Positions 10,080-49,330 are shown, counted from the first letter of the stretch. The stretch is 64,000 bases of DNA from Verrucomicrobiota bacterium (GCA_026397915.1 JAPLTX010000020.1:3299-67298); one strand, 5' to 3'. The notes: generated from the sequence alone by a model not told the origin. Numbers and translations: made by a program.

Positions 10080-11117
10080 ATGAAAGCGCTGGTTCTCAAA
10101 GCTTACAAACAACTTGTCGTTGAAGACGCGCCAGCGCCGGAGTTCGGGCCGGACGAGGTGCTCATCGCCGTAAAGGCGTGCGGCATCTGCGGCAGCGACG
10201 TGCATGGCATGGATGGCAGCACGGGCCGACGCCTGCCGCCGATCATCATGGGCCACGAAGCGGCAGGCGTGATCGCGAAGGCGGGCAGCGCGGTGACGAA
10301 CTGGAAGCCCGGCGACCGCGTGACGTTCGACTCGACCATCTATTGCGGCCAGTGCGACTTCTGCCACGTGGGTCGGATCAACCTTTGCAGCAACCGCCGC
10401 GTGCTCGGCGTTTCGTGCGACGAATACCGCCAGCACGGCGCGTTCGCGGAGTTCGTCGCCGTGCCGGCGCGTATCCTCCATCGTCTGCCGGACGCGTTGC
10501 CGTTTGAGCACGCTGCCTTGGTGGAACCGTTGTCCATCGCGCTTCACGCCGCGCGGCTCGCGCAGGTGTCGCGCGGCGAGGCAGCCGTGGTGATCGGCGC
10601 GGGCATCATCGGCTTGATGTTGGTTCAAGCGCTGCGCGTGGCGGGTTGTGAACAGATCATTGTGGTGGATGTTACGCCGGATCGGCTGGCTGTGGCGGCG
10701 CAACTCGGCGCGACTGCCACCATCAACTCCGCCAACGCCGACGCCCTTGCGGAGATCCTCTGGCTCACCAACAAGCGCGGCGCGGACCATGCTTTCGAGG
10801 CCGTCGGTGTCACGGCGACGGTGGACCTCGCTGTGCGCGGCGTGCGCAAAGGCGGCGCGGTGACGCTCGTGGGCAACGTCACGCCGAAGGTGGATCTGCC
10901 ACTGCAAATCGCCGTGGCGCGCGAGCTGACAATCCGCGGCTCTTGCGCGTCGAGCGGCGAGTATGGCGATTGCCTCGACCTGCTGGGGCGCGGCGAGGTG
11001 CAGGCGGCGCCTCTTATCAGCGCGGTCACGCCACTTGCGGAAGGCGCGGCGTGGTTCGACCGGCTCTACCGCAAGGAGCCGGGCTTGATGAAAGTCATCT
11101 TGAAGCCGACTGAATAA
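10080..11117 (+). CDS. Zn-dependent alcohol/polyol dehydrogenase (MDR family)
   Basis: GICGSDVHG catalytic-Zn motif, structural-Zn Cys cluster C..C..C….C and GAGIIGL Rossmann motif; 345 aa. Confidence 0.88.
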   Translation: MKALVLKAYKQLVVEDAPAPEFGPDEVLIAVKACGICGSDVHGMDGSTGRRLPPIIMGHEAAGVIAKAGSAVTNWKPGDRVTFDSTIYCGQCDFCHVGRINLCSNRRVLGVSCDEYRQHGAFAEFVAVPARILHRLPDALPFEHAALVEPLSIALHAARLAQVSRGEAAVVIGAGIIGLMLVQALRVAGCEQIIVVDVTPDRLAVAAQLGATATINSANADALAEILWLTNKRGADHAFEAVGVTATVDLAVRGVRKGGAVTLVGNVTPKVDLPLQIAVARELTIRGSCASSGEYGDCLDLLGRGEVQAAPLISAVTPLAEGAAWFDRLYRKEPGLMKVILKPTE

Positions 11118-11122
11118 CAACC

Positions 11123-11914
11123 ATGAACACCAACCTCTTCGATCTCACCGGCCGCGTTGCCATGGTCACCGGCACGAGCCGCGGACTGGGCCAATATCTC
11201 GGCCGCGCGCTCGCCCGCGCCGGCGCGGACCTCGTCATCACCAGCCGCGATGCGGCGACGCTCCCGCCGTTTCAGCGAGAGATCGAATCGCTTGGCCGCA
11301 AGGCGTTGCCATTGCCGCTCGATGTGCGCGACCACAACAGCATCCAGCGGGCAGTGGCGGCGGCGGTCGCACACTACGGGAAGATTGACATCCTGGTGAA
11401 CAACGCCGGCTGCAACGTCCGCAAGCCGGCGCTCGACGTGACTTGGGACGACTGGAACCTCGTGCTCGACACCAACCTGCGCGGGACGTTCTTCGTCGCG
11501 CAGGCCGTGGCGCGGCACATGATCGAGCGGAAATACGGTCGCATCATCAACATCGGCTCCGTGACATGCGTCGCCGGCTATGCGGGCCTCGCCCCTTACG
11601 GCGCGAGCCGCGGCGGCGTGAAGCAACTCACCATGAGCCTCGCCGACGATTGGGGCGTCCACGGCGTCACCGTGAACTGCCTCGCGCCTGGCTGGTTCAA
11701 GACCGCGCAGAACGCGGTGATGTATGAGAACCAGGAGTGGGTCGAGTATCTCTGCGACCGCATCCCGCTGAAGCGCCCCGGCCAGCCGCAGGACCTTGAC
11801 GGCGCGGTGGTATTCCTAGCGTCGGAGGCGAGCGGCTATGTCACCGGCCAGACGTTGCTGGTGGACGGCGGCATTTCCACCGGCGCGACACGCGCGATGC
11901 CGAAGAAGAAGTAG
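11123..11914 (+). CDS. SDR-family oxidoreductase (gluconate 5-dehydrogenase / KduD-like)
   Basis: TGTSRGLG cofactor motif, NNAG, and Y…K catalytic dyad region (YGASRGGVKQLT); 263 aa. Confidence 0.85.
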   Translation: MNTNLFDLTGRVAMVTGTSRGLGQYLGRALARAGADLVITSRDAATLPPFQREIESLGRKALPLPLDVRDHNSIQRAVAAAVAHYGKIDILVNNAGCNVRKPALDVTWDDWNLVLDTNLRGTFFVAQAVARHMIERKYGRIINIGSVTCVAGYAGLAPYGASRGGVKQLTMSLADDWGVHGVTVNCLAPGWFKTAQNAVMYENQEWVEYLCDRIPLKRPGQPQDLDGAVVFLASEASGYVTGQTLLVDGGISTGATRAMPKKK

Positions 11915-11952
11915 TTGCTGCGGATAACAAGAAGCCAATCATCGTCACGACC

Positions 11953-13152
11953 ATGAACGACCGGGAACGATTCATCGCCACGATGCACTACCAGCCGCGC
12001 GACCGTGCGCCGCTCTACGACTTCAGTTTCTGGGAAGAGACGCTGACGGAATGGCAGAAGCAGGGGTTGCCGAGCAGCGTGACGCGGCAGAATGTCGCCG
12101 ACTGTTTCGGGTTCGATGTGAGCCTGTTCGGCGGCGATCTGGCGTGGCACACCGGCTGTAACGTCGGGCTGTCTCCGGCGTTTGAGTTGAAGGTGCTGGA
12201 GGATCGCGGTGAGTCTGAAGTCCTCCAGCAGCCCGACGGCGCGCGCGTGGTGAAGAAGAAAGTGATGAGTTCGATTCCGATGCACGAGGGGCATCTGCTC
12301 GTGGACCGGCAGAGTTGGCGCGAGCACTACAAATGGCGTCTCGACCCGTCGCATCCCGACCGTTTTCCCAAGGCCGAGCCGCAACTCCGCTACGGCACCG
12401 CCGGCGTCGTCGCGATGCTCGACAACACGTGCAAATGTTGGGACGAGCGCGTGGCGTTCTGGCGCGACCCGCAGCGCACGCACCCGATCATCCTGCCCGG
12501 CGGCAGCCTCTACGGTTGGATTCGCAACTGGATGGGCGTCGAGAACGTTTCGATGGTCGTCTATGACGACCCGGCGTGGTTCGAGGAGATGGTCGAGACA
12601 CTCGCCGAATGCATCATCGGCGTGCTCCAACGCATTCTCAGCACCGGCGCACAGTTCGAGGCGTGCGCGGTGTGGGAGGACATGTGTTACAACACCGGCC
12701 CGCTCCTCGGCCCGGAACACTTCAAGCGGTTCCTTGTGCCACACTACAAACGCATCACCAGCCTCCTGCGCCGCCACGGCGTGGACGTTTGCTGGGTGGA
12801 CTGCGACGGCAAGATAGACGCGCTCGCGCCGCTCTGGCTCGACGCCGGCGTGAACTGCATGTTCCCCATCGAGGTCGGCACGTGGAACGGCGACGCCGTC
12901 GCGTTCCGCCGCGAATACGGCAAGGAAATGCTCATCATCGGCAGCGTGGACAAGCACATGCTCGCGCGCACCAAAGCCGACATCACCCGCGAGATGGCCC
13001 GACTCACGCCGCTGGTGGAGGAAGGCGGCTTCATTCCCACGCCTGACCACCGCGTTCCTCCCGACGTGTCGCTGGAGAACTATTTTTTCTACTGCGAAGA
13101 GGCGCGGAGGATTTGGGGCGGGGGCGTGAACCTCAAGCCGATGCGGCGATGA
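11953..13152 (+). CDS. Uroporphyrinogen-decarboxylase (URO-D) family protein
   Basis: N-terminal …YQPRDRAPLYDF… and C-terminal …GGFIPTPDHRVPPDVSLENY… resemble URO-D/MtaA-family TIM-barrel proteins; 399 aa. Confidence 0.6.
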   Translation: MNDRERFIATMHYQPRDRAPLYDFSFWEETLTEWQKQGLPSSVTRQNVADCFGFDVSLFGGDLAWHTGCNVGLSPAFELKVLEDRGESEVLQQPDGARVVKKKVMSSIPMHEGHLLVDRQSWREHYKWRLDPSHPDRFPKAEPQLRYGTAGVVAMLDNTCKCWDERVAFWRDPQRTHPIILPGGSLYGWIRNWMGVENVSMVVYDDPAWFEEMVETLAECIIGVLQRILSTGAQFEACAVWEDMCYNTGPLLGPEHFKRFLVPHYKRITSLLRRHGVDVCWVDCDGKIDALAPLWLDAGVNCMFPIEVGTWNGDAVAFRREYGKEMLIIGSVDKHMLARTKADITREMARLTPLVEEGGFIPTPDHRVPPDVSLENYFFYCEEARRIWGGGVNLKPMRR

Positions 13153-13223
13153 TGGTGGACCGACGCCCGTCTTGTTGCAGATTTCCTGTAACAAATTCTC
13201 GGTTTCGCTTCTGAGGTAGGTGT

Positions 13224-16200
13224 ATGAATACGTCTCAAGCGAATCCGGCCATGCCAAGCGGAAACAAATGTCCTCAATGCGGCGCTGCGTTGCCGGCGGG
13301 AGCGCTGGCGGGGCTTTGCCCGGCCTGCCTGCTCAAGCAAGGCGCTGCTGCTGACACCGCCCCGCCGCCCGGAGCTGCGCCGTTCACGCCACCGACGGTC
13401 GCCGAACTGGCGAAACTTTTCCCGCAGATCGAAATCCTCTCGCTCATCGGCCAGGGCGGCATGGGCGCGGTCTATAAAGCGCGCCAGAAACAGCTCGACC
13501 GGATCGTCGCGCTGAAAATCCTGCCGCCCGCCGTCAGCCACGATCCGAAGTTCGCCGAGCGATTCGCGCGCGAGGCCAGGGCGCTGGCCAGGCTCAACCA
13601 TCCGAACATCGTCACGCTTTACGAGTTCGGGCAGGCCGACGGGTTGTTTTATTTCCTGATGGAATTCATGGACGGCATGAACCTGCGGCAGTTGCTCAAC
13701 GCAGGCCGCGTCACGCCGAAAGAGGCGCTCGCCATCGTTCCGCCCATCTGCGACGCGCTCCAGTTCGCGCACGACCGCGGCATCGTCCACCGTGACATCA
13801 AGCCGGAGAACATCCTGCTCAGCAAAGAAGGCCAGGTGAAGATTGCCGATTTCGGCGTGGCCAAGATTGTCGCGAGCGAGCCGGCAACAACTGCTGCCAG
13901 CGGGACCGTTGCGCCTCTTTCCTCGCAGACCGACGCAGGCTTGGTGATGGGCACGCCGCAATACATGGCCCCGGAGCAAACGGAACACCCGTCGGAAGTG
14001 GATCACCGGGCCGACATCTACTCGCTGGGCGTCGTGTTTTACCAGATGCTCACCGGCGAACTGCCCAAGGGCAAGTTCGAGGCGCCTTCGAAGAAGGTGG
14101 TCATTGACGTGCGCCTCGATGAAGTGGTGCTGCGCGCGTTGGAAAAGGAACCGGAGCGGCGTTACCAGCAAGTCAGCGAAGTCAAAACACAGGTCGAGAC
14201 CATCGCCAACACGCCGGCAGTTGTTGGTGTCCCGGCTTCAGCCGGTCCGCAATCACCAACGCCCGTCCCGGCACAGCCGCAGCAGCCTCGCGTGCGTCTT
14301 GAAATCGCGGGAGCCGGCATCGCGTCCATCTTCTTCCTCGACCTCCTGTTCTGGATTGGGGCCTTCTGCTTACCGACGGCCCCGGCGGAGCCGTTCACAA
14401 CGCTCGCTTCGTTGGGCCTGCCCTTTGCTCTGTTGGCGCCAGTGATTACCCCACTGTTCGGTTGGTTGGCCGTCTCGAAAATCCGCTGTTCGGCAGGCCC
14501 GGATCGCGGTCTCGGCTTGGCCGTATTCGACGGACTGCTGTTTCCATTGCTGGCGCTCGACTGGGTGATTGGGTTACTTTCAGTCTTTTCGGCGGGGTTA
14601 GTGGCCGGACTCAGGGGACTTCGCGGTTCGCTGTTCGATCACATGCCGGAATTGGCGGCTTGGCTGCTGCTCACAATCGGCTTGATTGCGTGGTTGGATT
14701 ACTTGATCGTTCGCAGCGTCTGGCGCGCGGTAAGCAAGCCGCTTGGCAGTGATCGATCGCCCAGAGTGTCCGCAACAATTTCTCCCGCAGGCGCGCAGCC
14801 AGCGGCGGCAACCGAAGAGATTCGGCGGCAGGTCAAAGGTCCGGCGATTGGCCTGTTGGTGACCGGTATTCTTAACTGGATTCTCATCTCGGCGATTGCG
14901 TTGTTCATGTTGTATTATCTCTCCAGCCTATCGGCCGTTTTCGGTGGGACTCCCAGTATCGTTCAATTGCGGTCGCCAGAAACGACCGTGCCATTGGCGG
15001 CTGTCCCGATTGCCGCCTTGGTGCTCAGCAGCCTGATGATCTTCAGCGCGTTGAAGATGAAGCGGCTGGAGGGCTACGGTTGGGCGGTTGCCGCCGCCAT
15101 CCTCGCCATCCTCGTCTCGCCCGGCAACATCATCGGTCTGCCACTCGGCATCTGGGCGCTGGTCGTGCTGGCGCGACCGGAAGTGCGAGCGGCGTTTCGG
15201 CAGAGTGAAAAAGGCGGTGGCGTTGCGCCGCCAAGCAGGCTGAGCGCTGCGAATGCAGCCGACGCCAAGGCGCAGACCGGCGGTTGGTGGCGCGTGACGT
15301 TGAGCGTGGTGGCGCAGGTCGCGGCGATGGTGCCGTTGCTGGCGTTCGCGACCTACATCGTTCCGAAGTCTGAGACGCTCGCCAGAGATTTTGGCGCAGG
15401 ATTGCCGGGCGCGACGATTCGGATCGTGCACGCGATGCATTTTTTGCAGGGCTGGTCTTTTTGGGCGTTGGTAGCGGCCATATTGTTGAGTTGGGCGATG
15501 TATCGTTGGGGTGGACGCAAATTGCTCTGGCGCTGGACGGTCGGAGTCGCCGCGGGCTTGTTTGCGTTGTTTGTCGTGACGGTAGCGGCGGTAATCATTC
15601 CGATCTTGTGTTACGCGCCGCAGGTGATTCAGCGGAATCCGGCGCGCACTGAGAAAACGACGACGCCGCCTCGCGTGCCGCCTGAAACCACCGGCGGGCC
15701 GGCAATCGCGCAGGTAAAAGTTGAACGCAACCAGGTCGTCATCGAGGGCCGCGGCGCGCCGGATGCGAAGTTCGTTTTTCAGGTCGGCAAAGGCTCTTGG
15801 AACTGCAATTTTCTTAACGATTCGCCGTTCACCGCCACCATCGAGCGCGCGTGGTGGGGAGGGGAACTGATCTACGACGTCAGGGATTCACGCGGCAACG
15901 TGCTCAGCACTATTCGCGGCGGCAGGGTTGGCCCCATGACTGAGCACCAGCGGGGCCAGATCGTCTTCCGCAAAGGCACGCTGTCGCCCGAATCGGACAA
16001 CTCGTATGTCATCGGCGAGTTTCGGGCTGAAACCGGCCAGCCATTTCCAATCAGCGTGCGGTTGGAGACATTGAGCAAGCAGACCGTTTCGCCTGCCGAC
16101 GCGAAGCCCACGCCGCGCCTGCAATTCCGCCTTGTCGCCGCTGCCAACGACACCGCGCCCACCGACACGCTCGCCGATCCGGGCAGCAAGGAACCGTTGC

Positions 16201-17042
16201 GCATTCGCAAGGAAGTCCTGCTCGACGAATCCGCCGTGGCTCGCGCCTCTATAGTGGTCTCGCCGGAGCGCGGCGTGTCGGTGGAGGTTGAATTTAACGA
16301 GGCCGGTGCGACACGGTTTGCCCAGATCACCGGCGCGAACATCGGCAAGCGGTTGGCGGTGGTTTTCGACGGCAAGGTGCTCTCTGCGCCGACGATCATG
16401 TCCGTGATTCACGACAAGGCCGTCATCACCGGCAACTTCACTGCCGTCGAGGTGGCCGAGGCGATTGCGAACGCGCTCAATGCGGCCAAAGCAAAGCCGC
16501 CGCTCCTTGGGGCCGACCTGACGCAGGATGTGGTGAAGGATCTCCAGTTGGATGGGACAATCCGGTTCAAGACGAGCGTTACGCAGCGCAACACGGGCGG
16601 CGAGTCGCTGAAGACGCTCCGCTTCGCCAACTCCGACTTCATCCACGTGGACGCACTCATGGATGCGCATGGGCGCGCGATGTCGTTTGCTGTTAAACGC
16701 ACGGGCAAGATGACCTTGAATTATGAAGCCACGCTGGCCGAGCCGGTGAAGCCGGGCGCGGAATACACCTACGTCATGGCGGGAACGGAAACCGGCTTGG
16801 TGAAGCATCTGCCGCAGTCGGGTGAGTTTGAATACGTTATGCGCCACTGGCCGGGATCGGGCCGCACACGCCGAATCGAGCGCCATCTGTTGCCCGTCAG
16901 CGCGCGGTTGCTCAGCAAGACGCCTGCCGATTTGGCCGAGCGCATTCGTGACAGCCGCGTCGAGTTGTTCATTGACCGCCTGATTCCGAGCGGCGACAGC
17001 TTGGAAGTCCGCTACACTTATCGTCTGCCAACCAAACCATGA
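13224..17042 (+). CDS. Multi-domain membrane Ser/Thr protein kinase: N-terminal zinc ribbon, Hanks kinase domain, ~10 TM helices and a large C-terminal non-cytoplasmic domain
   Basis: CPQCGA…CPAC ribbon; kinase motifs GQGGMGAVYKA, HRDIKPENILL, DFG, GTPQYMAPE. A long run of hydrophobic helices spans aa ~370-830. The C-terminal region contains a SecD-P1-head-like segment (KRLAVVFDGKVLSAPTIMSVIHDKAVITGNFTAVEVAEAIANAL). Confidence 0.85.
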   Translation: MNTSQANPAMPSGNKCPQCGAALPAGALAGLCPACLLKQGAAADTAPPPGAAPFTPPTVAELAKLFPQIEILSLIGQGGMGAVYKARQKQLDRIVALKILPPAVSHDPKFAERFAREARALARLNHPNIVTLYEFGQADGLFYFLMEFMDGMNLRQLLNAGRVTPKEALAIVPPICDALQFAHDRGIVHRDIKPENILLSKEGQVKIADFGVAKIVASEPATTAASGTVAPLSSQTDAGLVMGTPQYMAPEQTEHPSEVDHRADIYSLGVVFYQMLTGELPKGKFEAPSKKVVIDVRLDEVVLRALEKEPERRYQQVSEVKTQVETIANTPAVVGVPASAGPQSPTPVPAQPQQPRVRLEIAGAGIASIFFLDLLFWIGAFCLPTAPAEPFTTLASLGLPFALLAPVITPLFGWLAVSKIRCSAGPDRGLGLAVFDGLLFPLLALDWVIGLLSVFSAGLVAGLRGLRGSLFDHMPELAAWLLLTIGLIAWLDYLIVRSVWRAVSKPLGSDRSPRVSATISPAGAQPAAATEEIRRQVKGPAIGLLVTGILNWILISAIALFMLYYLSSLSAVFGGTPSIVQLRSPETTVPLAAVPIAALVLSSLMIFSALKMKRLEGYGWAVAAAILAILVSPGNIIGLPLGIWALVVLARPEVRAAFRQSEKGGGVAPPSRLSAANAADAKAQTGGWWRVTLSVVAQVAAMVPLLAFATYIVPKSETLARDFGAGLPGATIRIVHAMHFLQGWSFWALVAAILLSWAMYRWGGRKLLWRWTVGVAAGLFALFVVTVAAVIIPILCYAPQVIQRNPARTEKTTTPPRVPPETTGGPAIAQVKVERNQVVIEGRGAPDAKFVFQVGKGSWNCNFLNDSPFTATIERAWWGGELIYDVRDSRGNVLSTIRGGRVGPMTEHQRGQIVFRKGTLSPESDNSYVIGEFRAETGQPFPISVRLETLSKQTVSPADAKPTPRLQFRLVAAANDTAPTDTLADPGSKEPLRIRKEVLLDESAVARASIVVSPERGVSVEVEFNEAGATRFAQITGANIGKRLAVVFDGKVLSAPTIMSVIHDKAVITGNFTAVEVAEAIANALNAAKAKPPLLGADLTQDVVKDLQLDGTIRFKTSVTQRNTGGESLKTLRFANSDFIHVDALMDAHGRAMSFAVKRTGKMTLNYEATLAEPVKPGAEYTYVMAGTETGLVKHLPQSGEFEYVMRHWPGSGRTRRIERHLLPVSARLLSKTPADLAERIRDSRVELFIDRLIPSGDSLEVRYTYRLPTKP

Positions 17043-17056
17043 AAGGAGAACCACTC

Positions 17057-17818
17057 ATGAAGAACATCATCACAACTCTGCTAACCGCGACGGCTCTGAT
17101 CGGCGTCTCACTAGCCGCTGATGATAAACCCGTCTCTCTGCAAAAAGCCGAGGCCGCGCCTTCCGCGCCTGCCGAGGCGTCAGTCCCGCTGGTGCTGGCA
17201 ATCTCGTTGCAGGAGGAAACTTTCTCGCTGCCAATCGCCGACGCGTCGGCGCTGCTGCGAAAGTTTCCCTCCGACGCCGAGCGCTACAAGGAGCTGGTGC
17301 GCCGCGCGGATGCCAAACAGGCGCGCTTGGAAAGGTTGGTTGTCTTGCGCACGATCTCCGGCCAACAGGCAAAGGTGGAGGCGATCAACGAGCTGACTTT
17401 TCCGTCGGAATCGGCTCGCGCCGTCGGCGCCGCCTCCGGCAAGCGCGCGCAGGGCAAGGCTTCGGTCGCCCTCCAAACCCGCAACCTTGGCGACACGCTG
17501 AACCTCACGCCCCTGTTAAGTCCCGACGGGAGCATCATTAACGTCACGCTGATTCCCGAAGGGTCGTTCCTCGCCGGCTATAATATAAGGGCCGAGCCAG
17601 GAAACATGGGCGCGCCTGCCGATCCTGGGCACGGCGCGGTTGACCACCTCGGTCATCCTCAAGGTGGGCGAGCCGTTTCTGCTCGGCACGTTCAGCCCAC
17701 CGTTCAACAACGGCATCGCGCCGCAGCAACGCGAGCATCGCGTCTGGCTGGAGTTTATCACAGGCACGCCCGTTGCCGGTGGAAAATAGCGGCGCATTCG
17801 TCCGGCATCGCTCCGTGA
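17057..17818 (+). CDS. Secreted hypothetical protein, apparently frameshifted near 17590-17610
   Basis: AAGGAG Shine-Dalgarno 8 nt upstream of ATG 17057, then signal peptide MKNIITTLLTATALIGVSLAADD. After ~17600 the annotated frame turns Arg/His-rich and low-complexity. The +1 frame (17589..17789) encodes a protein-like tail (…ARLPILGTARLTTSVILKVGEPFLLGTFSPPFNNG…). Confidence 0.55.
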   Translation: MKNIITTLLTATALIGVSLAADDKPVSLQKAEAAPSAPAEASVPLVLAISLQEETFSLPIADASALLRKFPSDAERYKELVRRADAKQARLERLVVLRTISGQQAKVEAINELTFPSESARAVGAASGKRAQGKASVALQTRNLGDTLNLTPLLSPDGSIINVTLIPEGSFLAGYNIRAEPGNMGAPADPGHGAVDHLGHPQGGRAVSARHVQPTVQQRHRAAATRASRLAGVYHRHARCRWKIAAHSSGIAP

Positions 17819-17831
17819 CGCGAACATCATC

Positions 17832-18377
17832 ATGACCATTTCCACGTCACAGAGTGACGCAGAACTCCAAACCCGCCACTTCGGCAAACGCGTCTCCAAA
17901 TCAAAAGCCAACGACCCTGCCGGGCACGAACAAGAAATGAAAACAACCATCGTTCCGTATTCAGATAACGCGCATCGCAGCCAAGTTGTGGCCTTGTGGG
18001 AGATCGTTTTCGGCTATGACGCACCGCACAACAAACCGAGCATTGTGATTGATAAGAAGATCGCCTCGATGGATCAGCTCTTCTTTGTCGCGCTCGCTGG
18101 TGATGCGGTTGTCGGCACTATCATGGCTGGATATGACGGACATCGCGGCTGGATTTATTCCGTTGCTGTGTCTTCGTCATGCCGTCGTCAAGGGGTCGGC
18201 TCTCGCCTCATGGCTGTTGCCGAGGAGTCCTTGATCGGCATGGGTTGCGTGAAGATCAATCTGCAGATTCTGCAAGGCAACGAGAGTGTTACGGTCTTTT
18301 ATTCGTCGCTCGGTTATTCCGTTGAGCAGCGGATTAGCATGGGCAAACGAATCCATGAAAACATACCCGCCGCCTGA
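17832..18377 (+). CDS. GNAT-family N-acetyltransferase
   Basis: Acetyl-CoA-binding motif region CRRQGVGSRLM and overall GNAT fold pattern. An alternative start at Met 17938 would give a 146-aa GNAT core. Confidence 0.7.
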   Translation: MTISTSQSDAELQTRHFGKRVSKSKANDPAGHEQEMKTTIVPYSDNAHRSQVVALWEIVFGYDAPHNKPSIVIDKKIASMDQLFFVALAGDAVVGTIMAGYDGHRGWIYSVAVSSSCRRQGVGSRLMAVAEESLIGMGCVKINLQILQGNESVTVFYSSLGYSVEQRISMGKRIHENIPAA

Positions 18378-19344
18378 CTTGGTCGTTATGCCTCATCATC
18401 GCAAACAAGCCGCGGTTTTTCTCCTCCTGACCTTTGGCATCAGTTGGACACTGATTTTTGCCTACTTCGCAACGGGTGGGCGCATCTATTCGGCATCGTG
18501 GTTCGTCGTCGCGATCCTCTTTATGTTCACTCCGATGATTGCAGCGATCATCGTCCAGAAAACCGTTTATCGGGAGGCGGTGATAGGACCCTTGGGTGTT
18601 TCCTTTCGGTTTAACCGATGGATGGTGATCGGCTGGTTGTTTCCGGCGCTGCTAGCGGTGACGGCCACTGGCGTCAGTCTGCTGTTCCCCGGTATCCACT
18701 TTACCCGCGACCCGGTATCGGCGAATGCCTTCCAGTTTTTTGGCGCAGCCCTGTCGGAAACCCAAATTGACGAACTGAAGCAAAAGCTGGTGGAACTTCC
18801 CCTGCATCCGTTTTTGCTCTCCATTTTGGGAGGCTCCCTGGCGGGCTTAACGATCAACGCCGTGGCTGGGTTCGGGGAGGAGTTGGGCTGGCGCAGTTTG
18901 TTGCAGCGGGAGTGGGCGGGACTTGGTTTCTGGAAGTCTTCGTGGTGTATCGGTTTCGTTTGGGGTATCTGGCACACGCCGTTCATTCTGCACGGTTATA
19001 ACTATCCCGGTCACCCCATTGCTGGCGTCGTGGCCATGACGCTCTGGACCATGTTGTTCAGCCCGTTGATTGCGTATGTGCGAATTCGCTCCGGTTCGGT
19101 GATCGGGGCCGCTATCATGCATGGGGCGTTGAATGGCACCGCCATCGCTCCGGCGTTAGTGATTCACGGAGGCGATAGCCTCACCGTCGGCGTCATCGGC
19201 GCCGCCGGTTGTCTGGTTCTCCTGCTTTGCAATGGCCTGCTGTTTTGGTTCGGCAAAAAGGACGGCTGGCATATCAAATCACTGGAGACGCTCCGCGCGC
19301 TGCCGCAAGTTGAGGGCCGCGGCGACACTGCGCCCACACCATGA
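18355..19344 (+). CDS. CPBP-family (CAAX/Abi, PF02517-like) intramembrane metalloprotease
   Basis: Multi-pass membrane protein with EELGWR (EExxxR), FxxxH (IWHTPF) and HGALN (HxxxN) motifs. Start chosen at MKTYPPPD, overlapping the GNAT gene end. Confidence 0.75.
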   Translation: MKTYPPPDLVVMPHHRKQAAVFLLLTFGISWTLIFAYFATGGRIYSASWFVVAILFMFTPMIAAIIVQKTVYREAVIGPLGVSFRFNRWMVIGWLFPALLAVTATGVSLLFPGIHFTRDPVSANAFQFFGAALSETQIDELKQKLVELPLHPFLLSILGGSLAGLTINAVAGFGEELGWRSLLQREWAGLGFWKSSWCIGFVWGIWHTPFILHGYNYPGHPIAGVVAMTLWTMLFSPLIAYVRIRSGSVIGAAIMHGALNGTAIAPALVIHGGDSLTVGVIGAAGCLVLLLCNGLLFWFGKKDGWHIKSLETLRALPQVEGRGDTAPTP

Positions 19345-19649
19345 ACATCATCATTGCCCGATTCAGGCAGCCAGATGCGGAGTTTTCTTATGTCATGGAG
19401 GGAACGGAGACAGGCTTAGTGAAGCGCCTCCCGCAACCGGGCGAGTTTGAATACACCATGCGCCACTGGCCGGGCACGATCCGCACGCGCCGCATCGAGC
19501 GCCACCTGCTGCCGACCGGCGCGCGGTTGCTCAGCAAGACGCCCGCCGATTTGACCGAGCGCACACGCGACGGACGCATTGAGTTGTTCATTGAACGTGT
19601 GATTCCCGGCGGCGACAGCTTGGAGATCAGCTACCGTTGGGCGCAATAA
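19341..19649 (+). pseudogene. Orphan duplicated copy of the 3' end of the Ser/Thr kinase gene (last ~95 codons)
   Basis: 19372..19649 is ~85% nucleotide-identical to 16775..17042 and the predicted peptides match closely (YVMAGTETGLVKHLPQSGEFEYVMRHWPG… vs YVMEGTETGLVKRLPQPGEFEYTMRHWPG…). It has a short unrelated N-terminus and no kinase or other upstream domains. Confidence 0.6.
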
Positions 19650-19664
19650 GGAGACCAGCACGAC

Positions 19665-19913
19665 ATGCCAGCAGAACACCGCTTCCTCAAATTCATCCTC
19701 CCGGCCAAGGCGTTCGCCGCGGTCAAGGCAGGAACCAAGGAGTGGCTTGCGGAGTGCCCCTGTGGCCACAAGCGCGACATCTGGGATTCTGGCGGCGTGC
19801 GCTACAAGGCGGCGGGAGAACCCAGGTGCCTCGGCTATTGCCCCGCCTGTCGCAAGAACACGATGCACAAGATTCGAAAGAAGACGGAAGCCGAGAAACG
19901 AGAGATTCCATGA
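19665..19913 (+). CDS. Small zinc-ribbon protein (hypothetical)
   Basis: 82 aa with Cys clusters ECPCGH and CLGYCPAC followed by a basic C-terminal tail. It sits between the orphan fragment and the S41 protease gene. Confidence 0.45.
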   Translation: MPAEHRFLKFILPAKAFAAVKAGTKEWLAECPCGHKRDIWDSGGVRYKAAGEPRCLGYCPACRKNTMHKIRKKTEAEKREIP

Positions 19914-19999
19914 GGAATCCCATGAACAAGGCGCCGCGCTCCACGGCGGAACCCGCCTGTTTCGGCGGCACCGACGGCAATAACCGTTGGGGGCCGCGT

Positions 20000-21561: not shown

Positions 21562-22044
21562 ATGAAATCATCCAATCTCATCATCAAATATGTTCCCCGC
21601 GTTGTGGCCTTGCTCATGGCATCAACGATTTACGCCGGGGACGATCCCCTCGCCAAGCCGTTCACTGGCCATTGGGAGGGCAGCGCCCAGATCGCTGCAA
21701 ATTGGTGCAAGCAGCGGCAACTGGCCGTGGCGATTGACATTCATCCCGATGGCAGCGTCACCGGCAAGGTCGGCGATGCCACGCTTGCCAATGCGCGCTT
21801 CAGCAGCAATCGCAGCTGGCTCGGCCGCGCGTTGGGTCTTTTCAGCGATTACATCGTCCGGGGCGACTTGAACGGCCCCATCGTGGTGGCGGACAAGGTC
21901 ACGCGTGTCGGCGTGACCATCCCGCTGGATGTTGACGGCGATAGTTTCGTCGGCGCCGTCCACTCCAGCGGCTCAAAAGCGGCTGCCGCCATCGAGGATC
22001 GAAGGCTGACCGCCTTGTCGTTGAAGCTCGTCCGCAAGCAATGA
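21562..22044 (+). CDS. Secreted hypothetical protein
   Basis: Begins 3 nt after the S41 stop; N-terminal hydrophobic signal region (VVALLMASTIYAGDD); 160 aa; no recognisable domain. Confidence 0.55.
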   Translation: MKSSNLIIKYVPRVVALLMASTIYAGDDPLAKPFTGHWEGSAQIAANWCKQRQLAVAIDIHPDGSVTGKVGDATLANARFSSNRSWLGRALGLFSDYIVRGDLNGPIVVADKVTRVGVTIPLDVDGDSFVGAVHSSGSKAAAAIEDRRLTALSLKLVRKQ

Positions 22045-22058
22045 AAGGAGACCCGCAC

Positions 22059-22475
22059 ATGAGAACCCTGACCGCAGCCCTGCTCACCGTGACGATGTTC
22101 ACCGCCGTCGCGCAGGCCGCTGAAGACAAACCCGTCACTGTTGAGAGTATGCCGCCGTCGGTGATGAAGACCGTGCCGCAAGCCGGTGACACGGCGGTAG
22201 ACCCGGCTTTGAAGGAAATCAGCGTCACGTTCAGCAAAGACATGATGACGAACCGAATGTGGGCCATCTGCCAGATTTCGGACGAGATGTTTCCTGGAAA
22301 AGGCGCGGGTGAGATTCACTATCTTGCCGACAAGAGGTCGTGCGTGTTCCCCGTGAAACTCCAGCCGGGAAAGACCTACGTGCTCTGGTTCAATCGCGGC
22401 AAGTTCAACAGCTTTCGCGACACCAATAACAACCCGGCCGTGCCTTACCAACTCGTGTTCCAGACCAGGAAGTGA
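22059..22475 (+). CDS. Small secreted hypothetical protein (paralogous start to the 17057 gene)
   Basis: AAGGAG Shine-Dalgarno 8 nt upstream of ATG 22059 and signal peptide MRTLTAALLTVTMFTAVAQAAEDKP. The start context is nearly identical to 17039-17060. Confidence 0.6.
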   Translation: MRTLTAALLTVTMFTAVAQAAEDKPVTVESMPPSVMKTVPQAGDTAVDPALKEISVTFSKDMMTNRMWAICQISDEMFPGKGAGEIHYLADKRSCVFPVKLQPGKTYVLWFNRGKFNSFRDTNNNPAVPYQLVFQTRK

Positions 22476-48427: not shown

Positions 48428-48725
48428 TCATGTGACGGCGATCAAAAAGCATGTGCTGCCGGCCAAAGAACATGTGTCGGACAAGAGAAGGCATGTGTCG
48501 AAATCAAAATGGTATGTGCTGTCGGCCGGAAAGCATGTGTCCGATGAAAAAAAGCATGTATCGAAACCCAAACGGCATGTGCCGCCGGCCGGAAAGTATG
48601 TGTCGGACGAGAGAAGGCATGTATCGAAAACCAAACGGTATGTGCTGCCGGCCAGAAAGCATGTGCCGGATGAAAAAAAGCATGTATCGAAATCAAAACG
48701 ACACATGCTTTTTCTCGTCCGATAC
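48428..48725. repeat. Array of ~13 tandem 21-bp repeats with a (g/a)CATGT core, organised as 4 copies of a 63-bp super-repeat (three 21-bp variants A/B/C)
   Basis: CATGT cores recur at 48451, 48472, 48493, 48514, 48535, … 48682 with exact 21-bp spacing. The variants cycle as gcatgtgctgccggccRgaaa / gcatgtgtcggaYgaRaRaag / gcatgtatcgaaaWcaaaMgg. All six frames stay open across the array. Confidence 0.85.
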
Positions 48726-48901
48726 ATGACGAAACGCCGCCGTGAGTGACTTTTTCGGGCTGGGAATGGATGTTTTTTGCTCCAACACACGATCAACGAG
48801 CGATTTGCGCGACTTTTCCCAAAAAACAGCTTGTTTGGTCAAAAAACGACACTACTCTCCGCCTAGGACTCCGAACCCATCATTCCAACCGAGGAACCCA
48901 C

Positions 48902-49330
48902 ATGTCCTTCCATGCCGACCTGCCCGTGAACGGCACCAAGACCGACGCCAACCTCCTGCGCGAGAACTTCAACGCGCTCAAAGATGAGATAGACGCCGCG
49001 CCCACCACCCAGCAAGTCACCGACGCCATCAACAGCGCCGTCGCCGACAAACCGACGACCGGGGCGATGAACACCGCGATCAACAATGCCGTGGCCGACA
49101 AACCGACCACGCAACAAGTCACCGACGCCATCAACGGCGCCGTGGCTGACCGGCCGACCAACGACGCGATGACCCTCGCCGTCAGCGACGCCATCAACGG
49201 CACGCCGCGCAACGTGGACAGCATCGGCACGCTCGACATCGTCATGAGCGACCCGCCCACGCAGGGCGAAGTCCAGCTCCTCCTCGACAACTACAACAAC
49301 CTCGTCCGGGCGTTGCGGAGAAATATCTGA
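48902..49330 (+). CDS. Repeat-containing protein, phage tail-fibre-like (tandem ~19-aa QQVTDAINxAVADKPTT repeats)
   Basis: ATG with a GAGGAA Shine-Dalgarno-like upstream; three direct peptide repeats; begins ~180 nt after the repeat array. Confidence 0.55.
   Translation: MSFHADLPVNGTKTDANLLRENFNALKDEIDAAPTTQQVTDAINSAVADKPTTGAMNTAINNAVADKPTTQQVTDAINGAVADRPTNDAMTLAVSDAINGTPRNVDSIGTLDIVMSDPPTQGEVQLLLDNYNNLVRALRRNI

Follow-up and report, generated by a model that had tools for sequence, protein, structure and literature searches.

Probable one-sided capture of foreign genes at the 3' end of a Ser/Thr kinase gene in an uncultured Verrucomicrobium

How does a gene come to have two ends? In a 64,000-nucleotide stretch of DNA from a Verrucomicrobiota bacterium (GCA_026397915.1, JAPLTX010000020.1:3299-67298; hereafter the window), a gene for a membrane Ser/Thr protein kinase is followed by a second copy of its own 3' end, which persists downstream as a short open reading frame (ORF), here called the orphan, without the 5' part of the kinase. 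A preliminary description of the locus, made from the sequence alone, took the second copy for a duplication that brackets an acquired cassette and likened the layout to the orphan C-terminal modules of contact-dependent inhibition (CDI) and Rhs loci. We asked which of the two ends is the original one, how the other arrived, and whether the orphan is a gene or a relic.

The repeat itself is real. Self-alignment of the 64-kb window by blastn paired 16770-17015 with 19389-19634 (246 nt, 82.5% identity, E 2e-66), and a repeat search paired 16750-17015 with 19369-19634 (266 nt, 81%), a start about 25 nt upstream of where it had first been placed. A codon alignment of 16749-17021 with 19368-19640 is gap-free over 273 nt and 91 codons, at 79.5% nucleotide and 75% amino acid identity; nucleotide identity thus measures 80-82%, not the ~85% first reported. 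The copies are ~80% identical all along, their longest identical run is ~25 nt, and homology is lacking over the final 21-27 nt of the two ORFs, the kinase ending in ..VRYTYRLPTKP* and the orphan in ..ISYRWAQ*. When the six-frame translation of the window was searched with a profile of the kinase C-terminal domain, these two copies were the only places that matched. A whole-window tblastx self-comparison gave noise only and was discarded. Both junctions lie inside continuous ORFs, and three Logan contigs (SRR20698641, SRR25046533 and SRR25046532), which are independent assemblies from other sequencing runs, cover both at 99.98-100% identity. Because contigs from three other runs span the two junctions intact, an assembly artefact is excluded as the source of the repeat layout, and with it the collapse of which the preliminary description had warned.

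Blastx and blastn were used to map ten related loci that had been recovered. L005, the closest of them in synteny and drawn from a groundwater Verrucomicrobia metagenome-assembled genome, has the same upstream neighbour, up399 (94% amino acid identity), then one uninterrupted kinase gene, and directly behind it the gene for an 82-residue protein (97.6% amino acid identity) that in the window follows the orphan; it carries neither cassette nor orphan. Window 11901-14213 aligns with the up399 gene and the kinase 5' end of L005 at 86% nucleotide identity, and window 19369-19978 aligns with the kinase 3' end and the 82-residue protein gene of L005 at 88%. The single kinase gene of L005 spans both flanks, which speaks against the idea that the second copy might be the C-terminus of a separate full-length paralogue. 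The ancestral kinase gene was single and ran, as in L005, from the up399 neighbour through to the 82-residue protein gene; in the window that gene is broken at the site corresponding to 19368/19369, and 19369 is exactly where the orphan begins to align with each of the ten related loci.

Two types of kinase tail occur among these loci. In L004 and L009 (B-type) the product ends in ..ISYRWAKQGE* and the 82-residue protein gene follows directly, while in L007, L008 and L014 (A-type) it ends in ..RYTYRLPTKP* and a Big_5 gene follows directly. The 82-residue protein gene is found only after B-type tails (..ISYRWAKQG.; the window, L004, L005, L009 and the contig of the orphan relative P0003) and is absent from A-type loci. 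Collinearity of the window kinase end with the A-type loci runs past the stop codon and on into the Big_5 leader, with contiguous blastn matches of 16543-17105 to L008 and 16861-17144 to L014. The interrupted gene has been completed, then, by a tail with A-type last ~90 nt, stop codon, Shine-Dalgarno sequence (SD) and downstream leader.

By the same comparisons, the tail original to this locus is the orphan, and the one now on the kinase was imported. On a neighbour-joining tree of the 273 nt, the orphan groups with L005 (bootstrap 90) and the kinase tail groups, with weak support, with L007/L008; the orphan is 86.4% identical to L005 and 79.5% identical to copy 1. Over the last 73 nt (16949-17021) the kinase tail is 90-92% identical to the A-types L007/L008 and 73-77% identical to the B-types, and the orphan is 90% identical to L005. 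At sites fixed between the two types the kinase tail reads BBBB and then AAAAAAAAAAA, switching at 16945-16955, and the orphan reads B throughout. Synonymous divergence (dS) is 0.62 between the two window copies and 0.51 between the orphan and L005. Since the tree, the identities over the last 73 nt, the type-specific sites and dS all separate them, neither copy arose from the other within this genome, and the duplication first proposed is not supported.

What event would leave such an arrangement? We consider it likely that ~2.6 kb entered by recombination from another haplotype, distinct from the resident one yet related to it, and displaced the 91 B-type codons with which the resident kinase gene had ended. 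The incoming DNA would have comprised an A-type tail, a secretin-like gene with a Big_5 leader already joined to it, a GNAT acetyltransferase gene and a CPBP protease gene, the donor being one that we infer. These passengers are foreign to the locus, because their homologues lie in other contexts and because GNAT and CPBP have lower GC, both overall and at third codon positions (GC3). The left end was presumably anchored by homology inside the region coding for the C-terminal domain; the left side is homologous to the relatives, and the crossover could lie anywhere within ~16520-16950. The right joint is sharp, with unrelated sequence to the left of 19368/19369, and would have been made illegitimately, in mid-domain. 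Such a route would be homology-facilitated illegitimate recombination (HFIR), by which orphaned 3' modules are documented to arise (PMC5361080, PMC3240628). Integration of a circular molecule with the 273-nt homology, by a single Campbell-type crossover, would be equivalent and give the same outcome. By either route the kinase would have stayed intact, with a new end and three passenger genes, and its old 91 codons would have been stranded ahead of their old neighbour, 2.6 kb downstream of their former place. The old half-domain would remain in the operon, co-transcribed and carrying the SD of the 82-residue protein gene, and would be improbable as the source of a functional protein. The displacement appears to be recent, as the orphan ORF is intact and has undergone no decay so far. 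A Campbell-type event had also been expected to leave a second copy that is A-like at its left; copy 2 is B-like throughout, a result that is uninformative unless the donor was B-like there.

Several observations weigh against this account. No locus with the order expected of the donor (A-type tail, Big_5 leader fused to secretin, GNAT, CPBP) was found among the relatives recovered. Over its first 200 nt the repeat has a star-like pattern, all lineages being 80-86% identical, and the assignment to A- or B-type therefore rests mainly on the last ~75-90 nt and the downstream context. Sliding identity to L005 falls near 16520-16540, and the type-specific sites are mixed up to 16944. The two copies also share a private T (CGGTTGCTC), absent from all relatives, within the 25-nt identical run (~16900-16925 against ~19519-19544), which hints at some short gene conversion between them after the displacement. 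Finally, the orphan shows a pattern of purifying selection: its ratio of non-synonymous to synonymous divergence (dN/dS) to L005 is 0.13, and its private changes are six synonymous to three non-synonymous, seven of the nine at third positions (P ~0.008 under neutrality, 0.05 with a generous synonymous fraction). This pattern fits a recent displacement and a constrained ORF equally.

Were it constraint, the orphan would be a functional 102-residue gene, translationally coupled to the CPBP gene and kept by selection after its displacement. Such a gene would also account for the intact ORF, for the overlap of its ATG with the stop codon of the CPBP gene (ATGA), and for its place in a tightly packed same-strand operon without a terminator signal. 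We think this unlikely. The product would be the second half of one compact beta-sandwich, no SD lies ahead of the ATG, and the first nine residues derive from the junction. Only four relatives came out of a search of 5.8 billion proteins, each of them a fragment or a short call. A contig end truncates P0002 and P0005 (the latter a match to L014), P0003 overlaps a gene called upstream of it, and P0004 lies on a 986-nt contig. The orphan arrangement occurs in a single lineage, the adjoining cassette gene is already a pseudogene, and a recent event explains the selection signal equally well. Because it would make half a domain, lacks an SD, has a junction-derived N-terminus and no stand-alone relatives, and adjoins a cassette gene that is already frameshifted, the orphan is best read, in all likelihood, as a recent relic without function, left behind by an insertion and replacement anchored in homology.

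The same geometry, a gene kept intact by an element-borne 3' end with the native end at the far border, would follow from site-specific integration of a small mobile element. We hold this to be very unlikely, as the 2.35 kb encode no integrase, recombinase or transposase detectable with Pfam or NCBIfam, only the secretin-like pseudogene, GNAT and CPBP; an identical core is missing from the repeats, whose longest identical run is the one given above; and the 'element' would start with a Big_5 leader that is native to this locus family. If the kinase 3' end, or a complete paralogous kinase that has since been deleted, had been duplicated in situ and the copies had then diverged, this would explain why direct repeats lie 2.6 kb apart and share a private base and a 25-nt identical run. 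Such a duplication is nonetheless highly improbable, given that the orphan is nearer to L005 than to copy 1, that copy 1 has both an A-type end and an A-type downstream leader, that the single kinase of L005 spans both flanks, and that the copies are so divergent at synonymous sites. There remains the thought that assembly or binning collapsed two strains' alleles or joined them into a chimera. A- and B-type alleles do occur in one metagenome (L008 and L009 come from the same sample), but against three independent contigs that carry both junctions, inside continuous ORFs, this has practically no chance of being right. One-sided capture with replacement of the kinase tail is the reading that we carry forward, and the features on which it bears are collected in Table 1.

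Table 1. Coordinates of the features at the kinase locus, counted from the first nucleotide of the window
Feature	Position	Strand	Basis
Ser/Thr protein kinase gene, 1272 aa	13224..17042	+	ORF list, Pfam, NCBIfam, hydropathy
Region coding for the C-terminal ~172-residue all-beta domain (aa ~1099-1272)	16518..17039	+	cluster matches, AlphaFold2, Foldseek
Repeat copy 1: last 91 aligned codons of the kinase, present functional tail	16749..17021	+	repeat search, blastn, codon alignment
'A-type' haplotype block: last ~90 nt of the kinase, stop, SD, Big_5-type signal-peptide leader	16949..17145	+	identity, blastn, informative sites
Leader repeat copy 1: SD and Big_5-type signal peptide, fused to secretin-like body	17033..17137	+	71% identical to 22035-22139
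Small secretin-domain gene (PF00263, family of ~220-270 aa) with Big_5-type leader, frameshifted	17057..17818	+	homologue coverage, tblastn
GNAT acetyltransferase gene, likely start 17937	17832..18377	+	Pfam Acetyltransf_1 2e-15; NCBIfam NF002959
CPBP/Rce1-like intramembrane protease gene	18388..19344	+	Pfam PF02517 7e-13
Junction stretch of no assigned origin: CPBP 3' end and first 9 codons of the orphan	19290..19367	+	blastn limits
Orphan ORF, 102 aa, beta-sandwich positions ~86-177 only	19341..19649	+	ORF list, alignment, domain profile
Repeat copy 2: displaced resident ('B-type') kinase tail, orthologous to L005 kinase 3' end	19368..19640	+	identity, neighbour-joining tree
82-aa CxC...CxxC protein gene	19665..19913	+	97.6% aa identity in L004, L005, L009, directly 3' of the kinase stop
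Leader repeat copy 2: SD and signal peptide of the intact Big_5 gene (22059-22475)	22035..22139	+	repeat search, alignment

The orphan had been described as an ORF that encodes only the last part of the kinase. A kinase end without its 5' part does persist as an intact ORF, though one made of 91 homologous codons and of nine first codons unrelated to the kinase. A blastx hint of weak homology ahead of the ATG (19287-19367) was set aside, as that stretch has a stop in frame and nucleotide homology starts only at 19369. Searches of Pfam, NCBIfam, PADLOC and PDB sequences returned nothing for the orphan or the kinase C-terminal domain, and no family for the 82-residue protein. Looking up the exact proteins of both, in search of a pre-insertion allele or a donor, returned the same strain only. 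The 3' end of the orphan carries the AAGGAG SD of the 82-residue protein gene, overlapping the orphan's stop codon, and this role may explain why at least the end of the orphan has been kept. For annotation, NT105_07070 and its copies are best treated as a gene fragment and not as a protein family. As a side observation, the 82-residue protein is highly conserved among these loci (97.6% amino acid identity) and the kinase is not.

The kinase consists, in order, of an N-terminal CxxC motif, a protein kinase domain (Pkinase, Pfam 2e-52), about ten hydrophobic segments, a SecDF_P1_head-like domain (5e-22; aa 987-1087) and the C-terminal beta-sandwich that the two tails encode. This last domain has no Pfam match above threshold and no PDB sequence match. 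With its C-terminal 183 residues as query against a representative set of 1.8 billion proteins, it matched 228 clusters at 50% identity, and nearly all of the best 150 span query positions ~10-180; of the matches that span less, most are the orphan itself or products beginning or ending at a protein terminus. An AlphaFold2 model built from 31 aligned homologues shows one 14-strand all-beta domain (pLDDT 95.1, pTM 0.88). Foldseek places the model beside the N-terminal domains of LTA4H/M1 aminopeptidases and ribophorin I/OST1 (TMq 0.67-0.74, probability 1.00), over alignments of ~195-215 columns including gaps for the 183-residue query and at 8-15% sequence identity, and one family member has a sub-threshold Ribophorin_I match. 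The model suggests that the domain shares the fold of the N-terminal beta-sandwich of M1 aminopeptidases/LTA4H and ribophorin I/OST1, here in a bacterial kinase and after a SecDF P1-head-like domain. These results define a previously unnamed domain of ~172 residues, which the related loci examined carry in large multidomain proteins. The kinase covers profile positions 8-182 and the orphan only 86-177, an incomplete member; what was displaced is therefore the second half of a single beta-sandwich by both cluster matches and model, and not the module or domain for which it had been taken. Across orthologous or related kinases (L005 4850-10537, L006 4574-10552, L008, L009 and L010, compared with the window), lengths range from ~800 to ~1990 aa; the Pkinase domain and the C-terminal beta-sandwich are conserved, and extensive reshuffling has affected the membrane and middle part. 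Only L005 shares the SecDF_P1_head-like part with the window kinase, and region 812-961 is duplicated in L005.

Gene order in the region is kinase, a 253-aa 'secreted protein', GNAT, CPBP, orphan, 82-residue protein and S41/PDZ peptidase, followed by a 160-aa protein, the secreted Big_5 protein, an ECF sigma factor, a 303-aa protein and PFK. From the kinase through the ECF sigma factor all genes lie on the plus strand with tiny gaps, and a promoter and terminator scan of this operon gave no signal above background. A second direct repeat, of 105 nt and 71% identity, is nested in the arrangement: the leader of the intact Big_5 gene recurs directly behind the kinase, where it is fused in frame to the secretin-like body, which indicates that the inserted gene took over a resident leader. 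The SD and the first ~29 codons of this gene are not from the secretin family but are the Big_5 leader copy. Homologues cover only the first 50-69% of the called 253-aa product, and tblastn moves from frame +1 to frame +2 at ~17584-17589, at a 1-nt insertion (..GGCTATAATATAAGGGCC..), the true frame running from 17589 to ~17788. Because the same product is called in three other assemblies at 99.6-100% identity, the frameshifted gene is a real pseudogene or truncated variant. Members of the small-secretin family occur in unrelated contexts. A 253-aa gene beside the 82-residue protein gene on the P0003 contig is absent among the secretin-like homologues and so gives no evidence that the first cassette gene is native. 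The '253-aa hypothetical protein' annotated beside the kinase is accordingly to be read as a frameshifted chimera.

Of the two other passengers, GNAT scores 165 bits against NCBIfam NF002959 (cut-off 124). CPBP has 698 homologues, the best 83-88% identical in amino acids, and its nucleotide homology to the closest relatives (blastn, L015-L017) stops at 19271-19289, which leaves ~80 nt without a match to relatives before the homology of the orphan begins. The closest CPBP homologues lie in other contexts, one after a different ECF-kinase pair (L015) and one near a GNAT homologue that is 65% identical (L016). The preliminary description had called the intervening content a lower-GC block holding a secreted protein, GNAT and CPBP. 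All three genes, including one with a signal peptide, are there, and GNAT is indeed the lowest in the region (52.4% GC, GC3 60) and CPBP mildly low (57.4%, GC3 69); the 'secreted protein', however, is the frameshifted chimera, and its GC of 62-65% is that of its surroundings. Most neighbours have a GC3 of 73-85, the exception being the S41 peptidase gene at 65. In L015 (2614-8972) the closest CPBP homologue (88% amino acid identity) ends a cluster of ECF sigma factor, Ser/Thr kinase, p167 and p403, and a p160 homologue (56%) lies 4 kb downstream; given these CPBP and p160 homologues, passenger genes may circulate among paralogous ECF-kinase loci.

How far does the resemblance to known systems go? 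HFIR (PMC3240628) has been proposed for the orphaned 3' regions in Vibrio cholerae type VI secretion system (T6SS) effector/immunity arrays and Rhs loci (PMC5361080). The window locus is like these in that a segment anchored in the conserved 5' part brings a new 3' end and genes, and in that the resident 3' sequence is pushed downstream and persists without a 5' part. It differs in having no recognised toxin or immunity gene and a single displacement instead of an array; both tails have the same fold, at 75% identity, and are not alternative effectors, and what was displaced is half a domain. With the orphan modules of CDI (CdiA-CT/CdiI) and Rhs loci (PMC3967940, PMC4927057) it shares the sequence of full gene, intervening genes and 5'-truncated copy of the end, as well as a small gene that travels with a tail type, here the 82-residue protein gene, which is B-type only. 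The host gene here is a membrane Ser/Thr kinase, however, and its tails are homologous, not hypervariable. The kinase has no Rhs/YD or FHA repeats (Pfam and NCBIfam return Pkinase and SecDF_P1_head only, and a YD-motif regular expression returned nothing), it contains neither VENN nor PxxxxDPxGL, and the repeat boundary falls inside the beta-sandwich. PADLOC and family searches of the locus gave no toxin, immunity or defence family match, and the genes behind the tails are the 82-residue protein gene (B-type), without a match to a known immunity family, and Big_5 or its leader (A-type). With no repeats, boundary motif, divergent toxin tips or recognised immunity pairs, the likeness to CDI and Rhs is one of geometry only. 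From the first proposal of cassette insertion or C-terminal swapping there survives an orphan 3' end left by a cassette that brought an alternative 3' end; the local duplication, the module and the CDI/Rhs kinship do not.

Elements that bring a replacement 3' end are also familiar from the prophages e14 and 21 in the E. coli icd gene and from islands in tRNA genes. As with the icd prophages, the target gene in the window is intact with a diverged substitute 3' end and the original end is a pseudogene fragment at the border; unlike them, the insert has no integrase or identical att core and consists of 2.35 kb of ordinary cargo. The event is an ordinary recombination scar of a known kind, with no new mechanism. 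Its value is that of a clean, datable case in which an uncultured Verrucomicrobium captured foreign genes through homology on one side, and in which the extracytoplasmic end of an ECF-sigma-linked Ser/Thr kinase was remodelled with the gene unbroken. Interest is mainly in annotation and local evolution, and the kinase/Big_5 junction is to be flagged as a variable spot.

A broader reading would make the junction of kinase 3' end and Big_5 leader a recurrent, homology-driven site of cassette capture and tail exchange in this Verrucomicrobial family of ECF-sigma/kinase loci. The grounds for it are a junction duplication in L010, the variable content between kinase and Big_5 in nearly every relative, and the undecayed orphan; we regard it as quite unlikely. 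If it were true, incoming genes would take the resident SD and signal peptide, the tail haplotypes of the sensor domain would be exchanged (A, kinase then Big_5; B, kinase then 82-residue protein gene), and displaced tails with their partner gene might be kept as a reservoir for switching back, by analogy with Rhs orphans. The duplication in L010 is an independent one of 100 nt (10523-10622 and 11819-11918, 73% identity). Each copy takes in the final 27 nt of the kinase (..RLPTKP*) along with the SD and the Big_5 leader. Between the copies are a GH16-like gene and a 163-aa gene, the product of the latter ending in ..RPPTKP; the duplication suggests that the junction is a recurrent insertion point.

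Two other repeats lie elsewhere in the window. An intergenic tandem array at 48451-48700, just upstream of the ORF at 48746-49330, has four copies of a 63-nt unit (80% matches) and a GCATGT-containing sub-motif every ~21 nt. Within that ORF, 49004-49150 is a coding tandem repeat of a 51-nt unit in 2.9 copies, encoding repeats of ..TTQQVTDAINSAVADKP...

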